Shown: in pieces, positions 36,262 to 43,677 of the stretch
Numbering within the stretch: the first letter of the stretch is position 1
Layout of the letters: every line of letters begins with the position of its first letter
Assembly: GCA_041664965.1 (NCBI GenBank)
Contig: JBAYJT010000002.1
Location: 2,877-66,876 of the forward strand
DNA: 64,000 nt
Source of the DNA: Gammaproteobacteria bacterium
GTDB lineage: Bacteria > Pseudomonadota > Gammaproteobacteria > UBA9339
Direction of reading: 5' to 3'
Translations under genes and position numbers: made by a program
Notes under the pieces: model-generated
What the model was told of the DNA's origin: nothing
What the model saw: only the letters and a program-made list of their open reading frames with translations
The model's database searches: none

Positions 36262-38214
36262 CTAGATATTCTTAACTTTGGCAATCTGTTCTTGAAATAC
36301 TTTCACTTCTGCCAAAGCTTGTTTATAGAATTTGCTAATTATGACAGGGTCTTTCCCTTCCAGCAAATAATCATCTAATCGGGCACAAGCTTCTTGTGTA
36401 CGCTTCGCTCCACAATAGCTAGCCAAACCACGTATTTTATGCGTCATAACACGTAGGGCTTTAAAATCTTTGTTTTTATATATTAAAGTGAAAGATTTGA
36501 TTTTTCGCGGCAAATCTTTTTTAACGGAAGCAATTATAGTACGAATCATCTGTTCGTTATTTCCATAATTTTTACGCATCAGTACAAGGTTAATAATTTT
36601 ACCTGTAGTTGTGCTTTTCTTATCTGTCAAGACCTTGTTTGTTTTAGTTGGTTCTCTCCATCCCGAAATAAAAGTAACACAAAGATCCCTGGCTTTTTCT
36701 TCCGTTAAAGGCTTACTCAGCACAGCATTCATACCAACTTCCACACAATGTTTGGAATATCCTGCACTGCTATGAGCTGAAAGCGCAACTATCGGCACAA
36801 GATTATCTTTATTAACTTCTTGCTCACGAATACGCCTAGTTACTTCGTAGCCATCCATATCTGGCAATCCAATATCCATCAAAATAAGATCATAACTATT
36901 TGCTCTGGCTAGCTTTATAGCTTTAACACCATTGGATGCTATATCCACCGCGCATTTCATACGCCCTAAAATAATCCTACTCAGCTTCCCCATGAAAGCG
37001 TCATCTTCAACCAATAAAATCTTCCACTTTTTTCTTTTACTATTGGGCTTAGTTCTTTCCAGCACTGGCAAGTTATGAAGATTAGATATATCTCCTTGGG
37101 TTCCATGCTCTATACCAGAATCATCCTGTAATTTAGCCTCTTGCAAAGGAATCAAGCATATAAAAGCAGAACCTTTGCCCTTTTTACTCTCTACAGAAAT
37201 TGTACCGCCTAATTCTTCCACAAATTGCTTTACTATACTTAAACCTAAACCCGAACCAGGACAAGTCCCATTGTAGGAAGGAACTAGGCGCACAAAGCGC
37301 TCAAATATCTCCTCATTCTTTTCATCCGGTATCCCAATCCCTGTATCCCGCACAATGAGTCGAACGGTTATTTTATCAGCCTCTTTTTTAGCTAATTCTA
37401 CAGAAACCCTAACCTTACCCACAGAAGTAAATTTTAAAGCATTGTTAGTTAGTTCTAAGAGTATTCTCTGCAGCCTCATGCGATCCCCAAGAACATAACA
37501 TGGCAGATCCTTAGAATAACCGTATATAAATTCTAGCTTCTTCTCAGCAGCTTTAGCCCCATTCAATAAAACAATTTTATTTAGAGCATCTTTCAAATTA
37601 AATTTTTTATTAAGAAGCGGTAATTCACCAGACGTAGTTCGAATTGTATCCAAAATTTCATCCAGAAAATCAAAGAGAGTGCGGCCTGATGCTACAAGAT
37701 TATCGGCATATTCACGAGTTTTTTGCGGTTTATCAGCTTCTGCTTTAATAAGTTCTGCAAAGCCCACAATACCCGAAAGCGGAGTGCGAATATCATGACG
37801 CATGTTTTCTAAGAATTGAGATTTTGCCTCGTTGGCAGCCTCTGCTTGCTTTAATGCTTTCTCAAGCTTTTGTTCGGCAAGCTTGCGATCGGTGATGTCG
37901 AAACTTAATACTCTTATACCAACGCATTTTCCTTTATCAAAAAGAGGTTGTTTTATGGATAAATAATACCGCCCTTTAAATGGCTCTTCCTTTATAACTT
38001 TTGTTCCCACCCTCATTACTTCTTTGCAATGTTCCCAAGATGGAAGATCGATGTTTGCAGCATTTACAGAACCACGAGATATAGATGCAACCATTCGATT
38101 GTTTTGTACGAGATAGTCCCCATTAACGTCAATCACACTGTAATTAAAGTCTACTGAATCTAGGAAAAGCGAAAGTACATCGCCATTAGTTGTATCAAAA
38201 AGTTGATTGTCCAA
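36262..38214 (-). CDS. soluble hybrid sensor histidine kinase (PAS-HisKA-HATPase_c-REC-Hpt), copy 1
   Basis: It has a TTG start 6 nt after AAGGGAGGA. Motifs are the H-box NMRHDIRTPLSG, the N/G boxes DTGIGIP and GSGLGLSIV, the REC LILMDIGLPDMDG and the Hpt MTHKIRGLASYCGA. No hydrophobic segment is present. Confidence 0.88.
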   Translation of the reverse strand: MDNQLFDTTNGDVLSLFLDSVDFNYSVIDVNGDYLVQNNRMVASISRGSVNAANIDLPSWEHCKEVMRVGTKVIKEEPFKGRYYLSIKQPLFDKGKCVGIRVLSFDITDRKLAEQKLEKALKQAEAANEAKSQFLENMRHDIRTPLSGIVGFAELIKAEADKPQKTREYADNLVASGRTLFDFLDEILDTIRTTSGELPLLNKKFNLKDALNKIVLLNGAKAAEKKLEFIYGYSKDLPCYVLGDRMRLQRILLELTNNALKFTSVGKVRVSVELAKKEADKITVRLIVRDTGIGIPDEKNEEIFERFVRLVPSYNGTCPGSGLGLSIVKQFVEELGGTISVESKKGKGSAFICLIPLQEAKLQDDSGIEHGTQGDISNLHNLPVLERTKPNSKRKKWKILLVEDDAFMGKLSRIILGRMKCAVDIASNGVKAIKLARANSYDLILMDIGLPDMDGYEVTRRIREQEVNKDNLVPIVALSAHSSAGYSKHCVEVGMNAVLSKPLTEEKARDLCVTFISGWREPTKTNKVLTDKKSTTTGKIINLVLMRKNYGNNEQMIRTIIASVKKDLPRKIKSFTLIYKNKDFKALRVMTHKIRGLASYCGAKRTQEACARLDDYLLEGKDPVIISKFYKQALAEVKVFQEQIAKVKNI

Positions 38215-38253
38215 TTGATTTCCTCCCTTAAAAATTGTTTCACTTAAACAACG

Positions 38254-39462
38254 CTAGTTGCTTGGAACAACTTTTTGTGGCTGAGCAAATGTTGTACTAC
38301 CAGTAACTGCCATCTCTTGTTGCTGCGCCCTCTCCGCTTCCACAGCACGAATTAATACACTAAAGGGATCAACCTTCAGAGCACTAGGATCACTTATGTG
38401 TATTCTATATGAAATGTGAAATCCAATGAATTTTTGCGAATACTCCAGTGTAACAGGAGCAAACGATTTACTTACCTCTCCTTCGTAATTTTTTCTAGCT
38501 GCATCTATACTGGTTACTAATGTTGCTATAGCCTCCGCCCTTTTTGGTTCGTTAAATTGGATAACACATTCCCCCTTCCACACATGATTTTCTTTTGTAA
38601 AGGACATCTTTTCAGAAAAATCCGGAACCGGAGGAGAAGGCGATCGACCATTAAAAAAAGAACTTTTCCCTAGCAAACGCGGAGGACTACTTGGGACGGG
38701 GGGCCTACTAGAATTACTTCCTGATCCAGGTCTTACTGTTGGTGAAGGTGGTTTAAATTCATACCCCAAGTATAACGCACCAGGATATGGAGGATTACCC
38801 GTACCCACCAGCTTTTGTAACACATATCCGCTAGCGCTATTAAAACTAGGCGCAGGGTAGCAAACCACCTTGCCACAACATAAAAAAGCAGCACTTTCTG
38901 TAAAAAGGTATTCCTTAGCAGCTTCTACCGCTGCCCCTTTGTTTTGTTTATCTATTTGGTATCTATGAGAGTGTTCAAGAATAAGATCATCAACAATCTT
39001 CTTAAAAACTGGATCGGCACCATATAGCTTTGCTACATCTTCCTTCGCTCTAGGATATAGTTCATTATTTGTGATGTCTCGCCAATATAAAATATCTTCC
39101 TTCGATTTAAAGCCAAATGCTGGATCCAAATTATCTAACCTGCTAGCATTTTTGGCTATCCATTCATCATCTGCTTTTTTAGCTTCACCAGGCCCAACAT
39201 ATACTTCGAACAATCCCTCTCCGCTTAGCACTACTCGTACTTTCGAAATGGCCAATCGGGGCTGTCCTCCCTTTTCAATTGGCGCCAAAAGCCTATTCCT
39301 ATTAACTAGACCAATAAAATCATCAAGTTTTGCTCCAACCTGAACATTTTCACCTTTTCTATTTAGCCCCATGCTTAAAAACAAGTATAGCTCCACCGGT
39401 TGACCACCATTTTTTGTGTCAACAAAGGTAGACAAACTATCTGTAAATTTAGCTGTAAACAT
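38254..39462 (-). CDS. cyclodipeptide synthase (CDPS)-like protein with Pro/Ser-rich linker and unknown C-terminal domain (tentative)
   Basis: LFLS30MGL, E-Y185-LFT-E189-SAAF and VC-Y202-P203 match the positions and spacing of the AlbC catalytic S37, Y178, E182 and Y202(-P in XYP-type CDPSs). Residues ~228-283 are P/S-rich, followed by a ~120-aa unknown domain. Confidence 0.5.
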   Translation of the reverse strand: MFTAKFTDSLSTFVDTKNGGQPVELYLFLSMGLNRKGENVQVGAKLDDFIGLVNRNRLLAPIEKGGQPRLAISKVRVVLSGEGLFEVYVGPGEAKKADDEWIAKNASRLDNLDPAFGFKSKEDILYWRDITNNELYPRAKEDVAKLYGADPVFKKIVDDLILEHSHRYQIDKQNKGAAVEAAKEYLFTESAAFLCCGKVVCYPAPSFNSASGYVLQKLVGTGNPPYPGALYLGYEFKPPSPTVRPGSGSNSSRPPVPSSPPRLLGKSSFFNGRSPSPPVPDFSEKMSFTKENHVWKGECVIQFNEPKRAEAIATLVTSIDAARKNYEGEVSKSFAPVTLEYSQKFIGFHISYRIHISDPSALKVDPFSVLIRAVEAERAQQQEMAVTGSTTFAQPQKVVPSN

Positions 39463-39643
39463 GGTATTTATATCACTAAAGTTATACGAAATATTTTTAA
39501 ACCGTTGTTAGTCCAATCTAATTTAGGATTGAAATTAAAAGGGGAATCAATACAAAACTAGACACTTAAAACCACTCTTAGGCCTTAAGGAAAATGCCAT
39601 TATCCCTTATAATCTTATCCCTAAACAAACCTCTCACGCGCAC

Positions 39644-39706
39644 ATTATAACACAAAAACAAAGTAAGCATTAAACAGCCAAGTCTTACTCTTAAGATTAT
39701 TTTAAG
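39644..39706 (-). promoter_or_regulatory. conserved promoter region of CDPS-like gene 1: TTAA-N7-TTAA box, candidate -10 elements
   Basis: The minus strand reads cgcTTAAAATAATCTTAAGAGTaagacttggctgTTTAATgcttactttgtttttgTGTTATAATg. The same block is conserved at 43536-43597. Confidence 0.45.
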
Positions 39707-39733
39707 CGAATATTTAGCGTTGATGAAACACCT

Positions 39734-39784
39734 AAAAACATGTCTACATGTTTTCCTTATAAATCAAAAAGTTATAAAAATAAG
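39734..39784 (+). repeat. family-A repeat, copy 7
   Basis: The sequence is AAAAACATGTCTACATGTTTTCCTTATAAATCAAAAAGTTATAAAAATAAG. It contains the 8-bp inverted repeat AAAACATG/CATGTTTT. Confidence 0.8.
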
Positions 39785-39810: not shown

Positions 39811-41847
39811 CTAGATCTTTCTCACCCTCAAAATAGCTTTTTGAAAATCGCGGATTTCGACCAGACATTTTTTGTAGAGCTTTCCGATAGTCGAAAATTC
39901 ATTCCCTTCCAGCAAATAATCATCTAGTTTAGCACAAGCTCCTTGAGTACGAGCAGCTCCACAGTAGCTAGCCGAACCGCGTATTTTGTGTGTCATAATC
40001 TGTAAAGTCTTCAAATCTTTATTTTGATATGCACAAATGAAAGAATTTATTTTATTTGGTAAATCTTTTTTGATAGAAGCAAGTAAAGTCCGAACTGTCT
40101 TTTCATTATTTCCATAATTTTTACGCATCAGTGCAAGATCAATAATTTTACCTGTAACTTTGTGTGATTGGCCTCGAGGAGGTTTTTTTTCTTTTGTGGA
40201 TTCTGTCCATCCCGGAATAAAAGCACTACAAATATCTCTCGCTTTTTCTTCCGTGAAAGGCTTACTTAGCACTGCATTCATACCAACTTTCATACAATGC
40301 TGCGAGTATTCAGCGCTAGTGTGGGCCGAAAGCGCCACTATTGGCACAATATGGTCTTTCTTAACTTCTTGCTCACGGATATGCCTAGCTACCTCGTAGC
40401 CATCTATATCCGGCAATCCTATATCCATCAAAATAAGATCGTATCTATTTTCCCTAGCGAGATTTACGGCTTTAGCACCATCCACTGCTATATCTACCGC
40501 ACATTTCATACGCTCTAAAATAATTCTGCCTAGTTTCCCCATAAAAGCATCATCTTCAACTAACAAAACATTCCAATTTTTTCCTTTACGAGTTGTTTTT
40601 TCTTTTTGTTTTAGAGGCAAAATGGGCCTCATCAAAAAAGCTTTTTCTACATATCCTTCCACCTCCGCCGGCATATCAGAAGCATCCTGCAGCATGGCTT
40701 CCTGCAAAGAAATTACGCAAGTAAAAATCGAACCCTTACCCTCCTCACTCCTAACAGAAATTTCGCCCTTTAAATCCTCAAGAAATTGCTTAACAATAGT
40801 AAGCCCCAAGCCGGAACCTTGAGATATCCCTTTGAAAGATGGGGTTAAACGCGTAAAGCGTGTAAAAATGTCTTGCTTTCTCTTTTCAGAAAAACCCATG
40901 CCCGTATCTGCAACAATAAGTTTAATAGCTATGTCCGTTCCTTCTTTTTTAGCCAACTTTACGGAAATTTTAACTTCACCTTTGGAAGTAAATTTCAAAG
41001 CATTGCTCGTTAATTCTAAAAGGATCCGCTGTAACCTAACTGGATCTCCCACTATATACTCTGCTAACTTTTTATCGTAATCGTAGACAAGATTTAGTTT
41101 CTTGGTAGCTGCTTTAGCTTTCTGCAATAAAATAACTTTATTGAAAGCATCTTTCATATTAAATTTTTTCTTGAGAAGCGGAATCTCGCCTGATGTAGCT
41201 TTAATGGCATCTAGAATTTCATTGAGAAACTCAAATAATGTACGACTTGAGGCAATAAGATTATCTATGTATTCGCGCGTTTTTTCTGGTTTATCAGCCT
41301 CTGCTTTAATAAGTTCCGCAAAACCTAAAATCCCCGACAGGGGTGTACGCAAGTCATGTCGCATGTTTTCTAAAAACTGCGTTTTTGCTTCGTTGGCAGC
41401 TTCAGATTTCTTTAGAGCTTCTGCAAGCTTTTGCTCAGCAATTTTTCGGTCGGTGATGTCGATAGATACACCAAGAAGTCCAATTACATCTCCCTCGGAA
41501 TTGCGCAAGGGTTTTTTGATGCTAAAAAAATAAGTTTTAGTGCCATCAGGATTGAGATGAACTTCTTCCAATAATTCGGACTTATTGCTCTCCATAACTT
41601 TTTTGGAATTTTCCCAAGCTGGGTCAGCGCATAAATCAGAAGTGTGCTTGCCTATAAGTTCCTTAATGGAAGACAAACCTAAAATAGCCAACTCCTTGTC
41701 ATTTCCCCCAAGAAAAATCCCCTCTTTATCCACCCAATAGAAGGCAATTGGAAAATCTTGTAGCAAACTATCCATGGCCGCTTCTTTAGCTATGGACACG
41801 GCTTTTTGAGCAGTTAAATCTCGTATTGAATTGAAAGAATTTGGCAT
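39811..41847 (-). CDS. soluble hybrid sensor histidine kinase (PAS-HisKA-HATPase_c-REC-Hpt), copy 2
   Basis: It has an AAGGAG RBS. Motifs are the H-box NMRHDLRTPLSG, DTGMGFS and GSGLGLTIV, the REC LILMDIGLPDIDG and the Hpt MTHKIRGSASYCGA. No hydrophobic segment is present. It is a paralogue of 36262..38214. Confidence 0.88.
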   Translation of the reverse strand: MPNSFNSIRDLTAQKAVSIAKEAAMDSLLQDFPIAFYWVDKEGIFLGGNDKELAILGLSSIKELIGKHTSDLCADPAWENSKKVMESNKSELLEEVHLNPDGTKTYFFSIKKPLRNSEGDVIGLLGVSIDITDRKIAEQKLAEALKKSEAANEAKTQFLENMRHDLRTPLSGILGFAELIKAEADKPEKTREYIDNLIASSRTLFEFLNEILDAIKATSGEIPLLKKKFNMKDAFNKVILLQKAKAATKKLNLVYDYDKKLAEYIVGDPVRLQRILLELTSNALKFTSKGEVKISVKLAKKEGTDIAIKLIVADTGMGFSEKRKQDIFTRFTRLTPSFKGISQGSGLGLTIVKQFLEDLKGEISVRSEEGKGSIFTCVISLQEAMLQDASDMPAEVEGYVEKAFLMRPILPLKQKEKTTRKGKNWNVLLVEDDAFMGKLGRIILERMKCAVDIAVDGAKAVNLARENRYDLILMDIGLPDIDGYEVARHIREQEVKKDHIVPIVALSAHTSAEYSQHCMKVGMNAVLSKPFTEEKARDICSAFIPGWTESTKEKKPPRGQSHKVTGKIIDLALMRKNYGNNEKTVRTLLASIKKDLPNKINSFICAYQNKDLKTLQIMTHKIRGSASYCGAARTQGACAKLDDYLLEGNEFSTIGKLYKKCLVEIRDFQKAILRVRKI

Positions 41848-41891
41848 GATCAGCTCCTTGCTTGGAAGGTTATCTATATTATCTTAACAAT

Positions 41892-43373
41892 CTACTTGGA
41901 TGTTGGTCTAGTATTATTTTCAGCACCTCTAGTTGGAGAAGTAGGAGGAGATTTTGACTTAGATTTTTCCTGGGGAATGGGGGCGCGCCCACTTTCCTCT
42001 CTGCTAACAGCAGCAGCAGCTGCTGCAGCTGCTGCTACGGTAAAAAATAAAAACTTTCCACCACCACTAAGACAAAGTTCGGCCACAGGAGAACGAGTGC
42101 TACTAGAACTCGAGGTAACTGCGTCTTGTTGCGAGACTTCTTCAAGAACTGGGGCTAAATTACTGTTACCATGACTAGTTCCTGCACCGGATGGTGTGTC
42201 TGATAACAGTGTTGGATCGCTTGGTGGTGAAGTACTGAAACTACTGTTAACTTTACTTGCTGAAATACTTTCACTAACACTAGTAGACGGTGATTCAGCT
42301 CTTGAGGATGAAGAATTGGAAGACGTGGTGCCGGTAGAAGTACTGGAAAGTGCAGTACCTTCCTCATGACTTCGAGGAGTACTAGACCCGCTAGAAGATG
42401 GTGGTGATTGGCGACCAGATGGTAAACTATGGCTAATACCTGCTAATAATTGTTCTATCTTTAGTTTTCGCAGCTCGAGTTCTCCTGGGGTACCAACATC
42501 CAGCAATTCGTTGGTCAGTTTAAAATCCTTATAAACCTCTCCAATTCTTGCCCTTGCTATATACATTGGAGATCCTAATACCCCCCGATAAACTTCTATA
42601 GGAAATTTTTTCCATTGCTCACCATGTAAAAATATTTGAAAAGCACTCTCCTCCTGCATGTAATGTCCACAACAATCACTGATATTCTCCCAAGTTACAG
42701 TGTGATCTTCTATTTTTTTCCGCACGGCTGTCTTCTTAGCTGCTATTTTTTCGGAAAATCTACCTTTAACTTTGCCTAAGTTTTTTCTAAAACCGCTTAC
42801 ATCGTTCTGATTGGGAGTTGACCAGCTCCTAACTACGCCCAAGCACCTCTTAAATTCAGGCTCGCCAATAACATCTGACCAGTCAAGACACCATTCCTTC
42901 TCTCTACCTTGTCCTTTGGCAAAATCCTGCAATAACTTAACAACTACTTGGTTTTGTTTTTGCCATTCACTCCAATACAGTTTAGATATTCCAGCAGCTC
43001 TTATCTCAGCTGCCCCTAAGGTATCACCTTTTTCCCAGATACGTGGCATAACATTAAATCTATGTAAATGAGTGGTATTTAAAAGCGTAATGATTCCTTT
43101 TCTATTGGGATATTTCTTAAGTTCATTAATAAGAGTGTTCACAATTGCCAAAAGGGGGGTTCCAGTCTGATCCTCAGGAGTAAATTTTACCGCTAACTCA
43201 TTAGAACTGGAACTTGAAGAGGAAGAGGATGAAGTTGGTACAGAAGTCGTTGTACTTGAACTTTGAGGATTGTCGCTTTCCAATGCTGGACAAAATCCGC
43301 CCATGCTAATAGAAAGCAAAATATCTCCATCTTTTTCAAAAGGTTTTGTAGAGCTAAATTGCAACATAAACAA
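41892..43373 (-). CDS. CDPS-like protein with poly-Ser insertion and long Ser/Thr/Pro/Ala-rich C-terminal tail (tentative)
   Basis: It has LLSIS23MGG, H-Y238-MQE-E242-SAF and EV-Y262 (20 residues after the Glu, as in AlbC). A poly-Ser insertion covers aa ~31-58. Residues ~316-493 are low complexity and include an A9 run. Confidence 0.45.
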   Translation of the reverse strand: MFMLQFSSTKPFEKDGDILLSISMGGFCPALESDNPQSSSTTTSVPTSSSSSSSSSSNELAVKFTPEDQTGTPLLAIVNTLINELKKYPNRKGIITLLNTTHLHRFNVMPRIWEKGDTLGAAEIRAAGISKLYWSEWQKQNQVVVKLLQDFAKGQGREKEWCLDWSDVIGEPEFKRCLGVVRSWSTPNQNDVSGFRKNLGKVKGRFSEKIAAKKTAVRKKIEDHTVTWENISDCCGHYMQEESAFQIFLHGEQWKKFPIEVYRGVLGSPMYIARARIGEVYKDFKLTNELLDVGTPGELELRKLKIEQLLAGISHSLPSGRQSPPSSSGSSTPRSHEEGTALSSTSTGTTSSNSSSSRAESPSTSVSESISASKVNSSFSTSPPSDPTLLSDTPSGAGTSHGNSNLAPVLEEVSQQDAVTSSSSSTRSPVAELCLSGGGKFLFFTVAAAAAAAAAVSREESGRAPIPQEKSKSKSPPTSPTRGAENNTRPTSK

Positions 43374-43535
43374 ACATCACAAACAGGGTCATACGTCCAA
43401 ATTTCAATTAGCACCAAGGTTAAAAAGGGGAATCAAAACAAACCAGGTACTGAAAAATCCACTGCTAGCTTTTCAGTAAAGTGCTGTTATTTATCCCTTG
43501 GCAGCTATGTCCCTAAATGAATTTATTAATTTAGC

Positions 43536-43597
43536 ATTGTAACACAAAAATAAAACAAGCATTAAGCAGTCAGGTCTTACTCTTAAGATTATTTTAA
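43536..43597 (-). promoter_or_regulatory. conserved promoter region of CDPS-like gene 2 (TTAA-N7-TTAA box; TGTTACAAT)
   Basis: The minus strand reads ctaTTAAAATAATCTTAAGAGTaagacctgactgCTTAATgcttgttttatttttgTGTTACAATg. Confidence 0.45.
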
Positions 43598-43626
43598 TAG
43601 GATATTTAATCGTTGATGAGAGTCCT

Positions 43627-43677
43627 AAAAACATGTCTACGTGTTTTCTTTATTTTTCAATAAGTTATATTTTCTTT
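43627..43677 (+). repeat. family-A repeat, copy 8
   Basis: The sequence is AAAAACATGTCTACGTGTTTTCTTTATTTTTCAATAAGTTATATTTTCTTT. Confidence 0.8.

Follow-up and report, generated by a model that had tools for sequence, protein, structure and literature searches.

A highly diverged cyclodipeptide synthase homologue with predicted disordered additions, encoded beside a PAS hybrid histidine kinase in a gammaproteobacterial genome

Cyclodipeptide synthases (CDPSs) are usually studied as the enzymes that open the biosynthesis of diketopiperazine natural products, in gene clusters that also hold tailoring enzymes. That cyclodipeptides serve as bacterial signals is a long-standing proposal, and to our knowledge no dedicated pair of a cyclodipeptide synthase and its receptor has been recognized. 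One branch of these tRNA-dependent enzymes, marked by the XYP signature (X40, Y202, P203), is represented by the structures of Rgry-CDPS from Rickettsiella grylli (5MLP), Fdum-CDPS from Fluoribacter dumoffii (5OCD) and Nbra-CDPS (5MLQ/9I5M). Here we analyze a 64,000-nucleotide stretch of DNA (the window) from a Gammaproteobacteria bacterium (GTDB lineage UBA9339; GenBank assembly GCA_041664965.1, contig JBAYJT010000002.1, positions 2,877 to 66,876 of the forward strand), in which an open reading frame (ORF) on the reverse strand, 41892..43373, encodes a 493-amino-acid (aa) protein that is, we are confident, a homologue with the CDPS fold carrying disordered additions, of which the C-terminal tail is real. 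A CDPS core with insertions and a C-terminal extension has been described in the same broad bacterial group (2018, PMC5816076), in a paper in which kinases go unmentioned (the word 'kinase' has 0 occurrences); the gene described here is followed by that of a hybrid histidine kinase.

The ORF comprises 493 open codons from a TTG at 43373 to a stop codon at 41892-41894, as had been proposed in a sequence-only reading of the window. The likelier start is the ATG at 43367, which yields 491 aa, because it is the start used in the public gene call (P0001) and agrees with the N-termini of orthologues, which read MLQF... or MQFF.... Residues are numbered here from the TTG (493-aa numbering) unless stated otherwise.

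Searches with the single sequence were mostly empty. No CDPS match was obtained for the 493-aa protein in Pfam and NCBIfam; phmmer with the single sequence against PDB sequences found nothing; a word-indexed search of 5.8 billion proteins returned only the query itself; and a single-protein search of 60 related genomes gave no homologue. An exhaustive phmmer search of 1.84 billion cluster representatives recovered five true relatives: P0004 and P0005 (about 50% identical and of comparable length), P0006 (28% identical), and P0007 and P0009 (27% identical, about 350 aa). P0010 joined the family later, through the word-indexed search with the family alignment, which returned P0004, P0009 and P0010 only. 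A related-locus search of genome contigs gave no match. A further candidate, P0008, was set aside as spurious (a Cys/Ser-rich repeat protein), as was a weak TIGR04539 match in an 808-aa ORF on contig C3 (L010). The family profile and the statements on conservation below refer to the six-member family of the 493-aa protein.

The relationship to CDPSs appears when profiles are compared. Searched against PDB sequences, the family profile retrieved CDPS chains only (5mlp with E 1.2e-6, then 6y4b, 5ocd and 5mlq). When the profile was compared by hhalign with 23 aligned canonical CDPSs, gathered from 400 sampled Gammaproteobacteria and from the order to which this genome belongs, the match had 99.35% probability (E 5.9e-20) over 225 columns, pairing SiS with ISvG, LEEcA with YLlEEcA and YRG with YP (family and canonical motif, respectively). 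The same profile scored 0.3% against the single canonical CDPS of this genome (L008), so that the link surfaced only with the 23-sequence alignment. Identity to the XYP CDPSs of solved structure is about 13-18%. The sequence-only reading had also called the protein a paralogue of the product of a neighboring 402-aa ORF, a claim supported only by profile comparison and gene position: BLASTP between the two proteins gave a non-significant E of 0.22, whereas the two family profiles matched with 91.8% probability (E 7e-7) and the two genes are identical in position.

Structure prediction points the same way. In a full-length AlphaFold model (built from 7 sequences) the predicted local distance difference test score (pLDDT) of the core is 60-94, and a core-only model (10 sequences) has a predicted template modelling score (pTM) of 0.71 and a mean pLDDT of 70. 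In Foldseek searches of the PDB, CDPS structures alone filled the first 29 ranks with the full-length model and the first 35 with the core model; with the latter, tyrosyl- and tryptophanyl-tRNA synthetases (TyrRS/TrpRS) came next, as expected for this fold. The top match was the Rickettsiella grylli CDPS 5MLP (E 1.9e-7, target-normalised template modelling (TM) score 0.67), and the core model reached a target-normalised TM of 0.71 with Nbra-CDPS. The core is therefore predicted, on these models, to adopt a Rossmann-like fold of CDPS type, akin to that of class Ic aminoacyl-tRNA synthetases, and the profile matches, hhalign and Foldseek together bear out the earlier suggestion that it is a CDPS homologue with AlbC-type Ser, Tyr, Glu and Tyr residues at AlbC-like spacing. 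Lack of such a fold, which the sequence-only reading had named as grounds for refutation, is thus not what the models show.

All four catalytic residues (Ser23, Tyr238, Glu242 and Tyr262) are kept in the 493-aa protein. The catalytic strand LLSISMGG (residues 19-26; 43296..43319, reverse strand) contains Ser23, which we take as the counterpart of Ser37 of AlbC in the ISxG motif, because hhalign sets the S-x-S-[MI] of the family on the canonical I-S-V-G. The other three lie in the remainder of the core (residues 67-314; 42432..43175, reverse strand), together with a QTG helix, an LLNTxxLxRF strand and helix, and W..W motifs. Tyr238 and Glu242 fall in YMQEESAF (residues 238-245; the Y238-MQE-E242 segment at 42639-42662), four residues apart, and Tyr262 follows 20 residues after Glu242 in EVYRG (residues 260-264; 42582-42596), all as first noticed from the sequence. 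Y238-x3-E242 aligns with the canonical Y-L-L-E-E and Tyr262 with the tyrosine of YP. In the family, the position of Tyr262 (AlbC Tyr202) is invariant, as is Glu241, just before Glu242. Of the XYP signature the protein shows Tyr262 followed by Arg, and the enzymes that it matches best, in structure as in sequence, all belong to the XYP group; the protein is probably a strongly divergent tRNA-dependent CDPS of the XYP branch.

The first addition to this core is a family-specific loop of 40 residues (residues 27-66; 43176..43295, reverse strand), recognized from an hhalign insertion, low pLDDT and the loop lengths of relatives. It starts right past AlbC position 40 (X40), after the ISxG turn and ahead of the (Q/H)xG with which helix alpha2 begins, includes a Ser/Thr run, and closes with a conserved xFxP segment (xFxPE(N/D)Q). 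The Ser/Thr run, ESDNPQSSSTTTSVPTSSSSSSSSSSNE, occupies residues 32-59 (43197-43280); it had been described as following MGG directly, which is incorrect, since FCPAL intervenes, while the adjacency of the insert to the catalytic Ser is supported by hhalign. From the Ser to xFxPE(N/D)Q the loop measures 40 aa here, 54, 53 and 31 aa in P0004, P0005 and P0006, and 13 aa in the short members; Ser and Thr make up about 40-47% of the long loops and 0% of the one short loop measured (P0007). Residues 33-65 have pLDDT below 50 in both models, and in four sequences the open frame runs through the insert from one conserved core motif to another. Its Ser codons are a mixture of all six, and Tandem Repeats Finder detected a tandem DNA repeat in the Ala tract only, not in the Ser tract. 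The idea of length-variable codon tracts therefore holds in part: lengths do vary between orthologues (13-54 aa for the loop, 99-194 aa for the tail), but the Ser tract is no pure codon repeat. We regard the insert as a lineage-specific expansion, predicted to be disordered, of a family-specific loop.

The second addition is a Ser/Thr/Pro/Ala-rich tail (residues 315-493; 41895..42431, reverse strand), delimited by pLDDT, orthologue alignment and composition. Residues 316-493 are 28% Ser, 10% Thr, 10% Ala and 10% Pro; sequence entropy is 3.5 bits in the tail and 4.16 bits in the core, where 49% of the residues are disorder-promoting, compared with 70% in the tail. Beyond residue 310 the AlphaFold pLDDT no longer reaches 50, save for a helix (444-459 in 491-aa numbering) that spans the run of nine alanines (Ala9) located, as earlier reported, at residues 447-455 (42009-42035), so that insert and tail are both predicted to be disordered. 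Short conserved islands punctuate the tail: GRxSP (about residues 318-326), PVAELC..GGGKFLFF, the Ala9 helix, KSKSKSPPTSP (its SPPTSP at residues 475-480, 41934-41951) and the C-terminal RPTSK (41895-41909). Open tails of 169-194 codons are found in the window, in P0004 (Logan SRR21362600) and in P0005 (JGI Ga0265297_10001260, L007), and the three share GRxSP after the core, PVAxxC..GGGxFxFF, KSKSxSPPxSP and a C-terminal RPxS(K/S/N). Because these independent assemblies keep the frame and the same C-terminal motifs, the tail is translated and no frameshift is involved, a point on which the sequence-only reading had itself asked for scrutiny. Ala9 aligns with ETAVEAARV in P0004, ETAVRLGLL in P0005 and PEAIPFAL in P0006, and is accordingly seen as a degenerate copy of a conserved helix; a membrane anchor (FLFFTV-Ala9-V) was considered and rejected, since orthologues carry a charged amphipathic helix there (ETAVEAARV). 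An SFFG motif present in P0004, P0005, P0006, L015 and the 402-aa family has been lost in the 493-aa protein.

Downstream of the ORF lies HK1 (39811..41847, reverse strand), by Pfam a soluble hybrid histidine kinase of PAS-HisKA-HATPase-REC-Hpt architecture. The intergenic gap of 44 nucleotides (nt; 41848..41891) contains AAGGAG, and no terminator-like hairpin was seen in it; the two genes are therefore probably co-transcribed. The gene context was checked for every relative whose contig was retrieved. A PAS kinase of HK1 type stands about 25-50 nt downstream of P0004, P0005/L007, P0009, P0010 and L015: the kinase after P0004 is 76% identical to HK1, those after P0009 and P0010 are of PAS type and 44-47% identical, and downstream of P0005 come a hybrid kinase gene and kdsD, in the order seen in the window. 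A profile search of 22 genomes of this taxonomic order yielded two more cases: L015 is a 654-aa protein with an N-terminal Ser/Thr-rich region, large insertions and a GGGSFFG...KRPCSR tail, and L016 is a CDPS of normal length (238 aa; TIGR04539 40.7 bits against a cut-off of 45, E 1.9e-10), each being followed by a PAS kinase. Among the 23 canonical CDPS loci (which include L019-L039 and L016), an HK1-like kinase occurs within 1.5 kb of 20; the kinase is downstream on the same strand in 15 of the 23, and in 12 of those 15 the gap is at most 100 nt. In the literature searched we found no description of such a pairing of CDPS and PAS-kinase genes.

Given this conserved pairing, we lean towards the 493-aa protein being an active CDPS that works with the adjacent PAS kinase as a cyclodipeptide producer and sensor pair. 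The 493-aa gene would be the first and the PAS hybrid kinase gene the second cistron of a conserved two-gene unit. The ping-pong reaction would begin with transfer of an aminoacyl group from a first aminoacyl-tRNA to Ser23, and the dipeptidyl intermediate would then be positioned and cyclised with the help of Tyr238, Glu242 and Tyr262; the cyclodipeptide, or the state of the synthase, might then be sensed by the PAS domain of the adjoining kinase, whose REC-Hpt relay would carry the signal onward.

Several observations weigh against this interpretation. Neither the 493-aa protein nor any of its close relatives is matched at E<=1 by PF16715 or TIGR04539, models that do score the canonical CDPS of this genome (55 bits), and the 493-aa sequence taken singly reaches an hhalign probability of only 40% against canonical CDPSs. 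HMMER and MAFFT put the canonical Ser column on Lys63, past the insert; this placement is outweighed by hhalign, by the shared LLxS(M/V)G motif and by the modelled strand, and Ser23 is preferred because LLSISMG resembles LFLSMG of the 402-aa protein and the canonical LLISVG, because the Ser is invariant in the family, and because residues 16-19 form a core strand in both AlphaFold models. Other active-site positions vary: across the six family members the position of Tyr178 reads Y, Y, Y, F, I and I, that of Glu182 holds E in every member but P0006, which has K, and that of Pro203 is Arg in the 493-aa protein and most members and Pro in P0005 and L015, so that some members of the family may have changed or lost activity. 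The aminoacyl pocket could be disturbed by the 40-residue loop, which lies three residues past the nucleophile. The proposed pair also presumes that the PAS domain binds a cyclodipeptide. Finally, because canonical CDPS-kinase pairs are tail-less, the pairing leaves the tail unexplained, and probable effectors encoded in this genome carry Ser/Thr-rich tails of a similar kind.

Upstream of the ORF is a conserved leader (43374..43640, reverse strand) with a TTAA-N7-TTAA repeat, an extended -10 element (TGTGTTACAAT) and a 5' untranslated region (UTR) of about 170 nt with a conserved hairpin and U-tract. Leaders of CDPS-like genes are conserved at 43374-43640 and 39463-39745 (both reverse strand), L003:1-195 and L007:250-440, in the order TTAA-N7-TTAA, extended -10 TGTGTTA(T/C)AAT, 5' UTR of about 170 nt, hairpin CUGAAAA...UUUUCAG and U-tract; the hairpin shows one compensatory pair (G-C to U-A) among the four sequences. 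An Rfam search of leaders and genes returned no family. The leader may act as an attenuator or hold a binding site for a regulator.

The strongest of the alternatives, which we nevertheless consider unlikely, is that the 493-aa protein is an effector translocated by a Dot/Icm system: the Ser/Thr/Pro-rich tail would serve as secretion signal or linker, the core would act on host aminoacyl-tRNAs in the cytosol of the host, and the kinase would only regulate expression. The genome does encode DotA (264 bits summed) and DotH/IcmK (286 bits), and about 55 of its ORFs of at least 150 aa hold a 25-residue window with at least 56-60% Ser plus Thr. Among these Ser/Thr-tract ORFs many finish with a Ser/Thr run, Phi-F-x(1-3)-P and 25-40 Ser/Thr/Pro-rich residues, and the motif small-small-PhiF-x(1-3)-P lies 15-59 aa from C-termini in 26 cases against 11.3 expected (2.3-fold, P ~1e-4); it may be a lineage-specific secretion or docking signal. 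Such tails are borne by a U-box protein (C37:935-2455), TPR proteins (C25:22554-23732 and C29:12894-14660) and a metallophosphatase (C20:8488-10008). The extreme C-terminus RPxS(K/S/N) is kept in P0001, P0004 and P0005 (with the variant KRPCSR in L015), and RP.S. ends three other ORFs of the genome, where a rough estimate from amino-acid frequencies expects about 0.3. The TTAA-N7-TTAA of the leader resembles a PmrA box, but it stands about 40 nt from the -10 element, which is farther than usual for PmrA-regulated promoters of Legionella and Coxiella. Also unfavorable to export are the last 30 residues, which have no clear E-block, the loss of the FFG motif kept by relatives, the lack, in the 493-aa protein, of a PhiF motif as far from the C-terminus as is usual, and the Pfam search, in which no eukaryote-like domain was found. 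The pairing of CDPS and kinase is ancestral and common to tail-less CDPSs in many genomes. The sequence-only description of the composition as effector-like is thus partly borne out: Ser/Thr-rich tails are typical of the probable secreted proteins of this organism, U-box and TPR proteins among them, which lends some support to the effector idea, whereas a kinase operon shared with tail-less canonical CDPSs points first to bacterial signaling.

Two side observations concern similar C-termini. A 378-aa CDPS of another gammaproteobacterial family (L036:1438-2571) has a C-terminal extension with NSPPPVQNWGGIALFTQPQKPQIFQSPS, in which PhiF-x-x-P and SPP motifs resemble those in the tails of this genome. 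In the window itself, a 507-aa Ser/Thr-rich ORF (21028-22551, reverse strand; MFCCC...) ends in ...SLRPTKS, resembling the RPTSK of the 493-aa protein.

It is improbable, in our judgment, that the protein is a catalytically dead pseudoenzyme with the CDPS fold that serves the kinase in an accessory or regulatory role, for example by binding (aminoacyl-)tRNA or by docking on the kinase through its tail. Its extreme divergence, overlooked by curated models, the variation at the Tyr178, Glu182 and Pro203 equivalents, the large loop beside the nucleophile and the conserved short tail motifs of a protein-docking kind would all suit that role. They are set against the retention of all four catalytic residues in the 493-aa protein, the invariance in six members of Ser23, Glu241 and Tyr262 (Glu242 being E in five and K in P0006), and the upkeep of other CDPS motifs (LxR, W..W). 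That tail or insert might be an artefact of frameshift, assembly error or wrong gene call, as low-complexity DNA in a metagenome-assembled genome could suggest, is scarcely credible, given three independent assemblies with an open frame and a shared KSKSxSPPxSP...RPxS end and an insert held in frame between conserved core motifs in four sequences.

The preferred reading, a synthase paired with a sensor kinase, can also be set against the other CDPS genes of the genome. A second, remotely paralogous cassette lies at 36262..39462 on the reverse strand and consists of the 402-aa CDPS-like gene (38254-39462) and the hybrid kinase HK2 (36262-38214); P0003, a relative of the 402-aa gene, likewise has an HK2-type kinase about 100 nt downstream. 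HK1 and HK2 are 59% identical overall, 29-36% in the PAS region and 43-78% elsewhere (65-78% in most of the transmitter, receiver and Hpt); the low PAS identity parallels the near-total divergence of the CDPS-like genes upstream. After duplication, the two cassettes would have diverged in synthase and PAS and not in transmitter, which fits two ligand channels feeding similar outputs. In a related organism (L007:426-4900, JGI Ga0265297_10001260) a single cassette stands ahead of kdsD, with a kinase that is HK1-like in the PAS region (63-72% against 25-45%) and HK2-like at the C-terminal end (82% against 62%), suggesting recombination between two kinase genes, with the 402-aa cassette lost there or gained here.

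A tblastn search of the genome with HK1 revealed further HK1-like kinases on contigs C49, C9 and C55. On C49 the kinase is preceded by a 436-aa CDPS gene (C49:7764-9071; pair C49:7764-10629) whose product ends in SSPPTSPQKS, and on C9 by a 383-aa CDPS gene (C9:910-2058; pair C9:3-2058); both products match canonical CDPSs in hhalign with 98.8-99.2% probability, and each has a Ser/Thr-rich linker and a C-terminal extension. The HK1-like hybrid kinase on C55 (C55:390-3368, reverse strand; 663 aa), the fourth of its kind, is preceded by a 326-aa non-CDPS protein (MDDNNKPQLIRSICVFAGSSSGS...), which by eye may resemble LOG/lysine-decarboxylase-like enzymes. A canonical CDPS on C13 (24152-24715) has no adjoining kinase. 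This reduced genome of 1.53 Mb therefore holds five genes of the CDPS family, and all but one of these are paired with a kinase gene.

We tentatively hypothesize, with the balance of our judgment somewhat against the proposal as a whole, that CDPS-PAS-kinase pairs are dedicated cyclodipeptide signaling systems, each of a synthase and a cytoplasmic receptor kinase, widespread in Legionellales-like Gammaproteobacteria, four such channels being present here, and that the disordered regions gained by the 493-aa protein tie its activity or its location to another partner, possibly with Dot/Icm export as well. In any case the CDPS-kinase adjacency offers a concrete candidate synthase/receptor pair for testing; a whole clade has been missed by curated CDPS models; and the 493-aa protein shows how far a CDPS can drift with its catalytic residues kept, to 13-18% identity, a 40-residue loop and a tail of about 180 residues.

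Compared with its sister cassettes, the 493-aa gene is similar in belonging to the CDPS family and in lying directly upstream of an HK1-like PAS kinase, and the 402-aa, C49 and C9 proteins also share a Ser/Thr-rich linker and C-terminal extension with it. They are much nearer to canonical CDPSs, however (single-sequence hhalign 96-99% against 40% for the 493-aa protein), have a short loop past the catalytic Ser, and carry extensions with a segment that appears folded by eye from sequence, whereas the 493-aa tail is almost wholly disordered by prediction.

Compared with the XYP CDPSs of known structure, the 493-aa protein has a similar predicted fold (target-normalised TM 0.65-0.71) and its motifs follow one another as they do there (ISxG nucleophile strand, LxR, W..W, Y-x-x-x-E, Y(P)), and its closest XYP matches come from Legionellales-type intracellular bacteria. 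Different from them, it has a disordered 40-aa loop past position 40, Arg in place of Pro203, and a 180-aa disordered tail that brings it to about twice the normal length. The extensions in PMC5816076 are described as a domain, while that of the 493-aa protein is mostly low-complexity and disordered, and the two are likened here by description only.

As a gene arrangement, the nearest parallels are the autoinducer pairs CqsA-CqsS, LqsA-LqsS and LuxM-LuxN, in which the gene of a small-molecule synthase likewise adjoins that of a hybrid histidine kinase and duplicated pairs diverge in synthase and sensor domain. The enzyme families are unrelated, an aminotransferase or acyl-HSL (acyl-homoserine lactone) synthase there and a tRNA-dependent CDPS here; and where those systems use a membrane sensor, the kinase here is soluble, with a cytoplasmic PAS domain and a putative signal.

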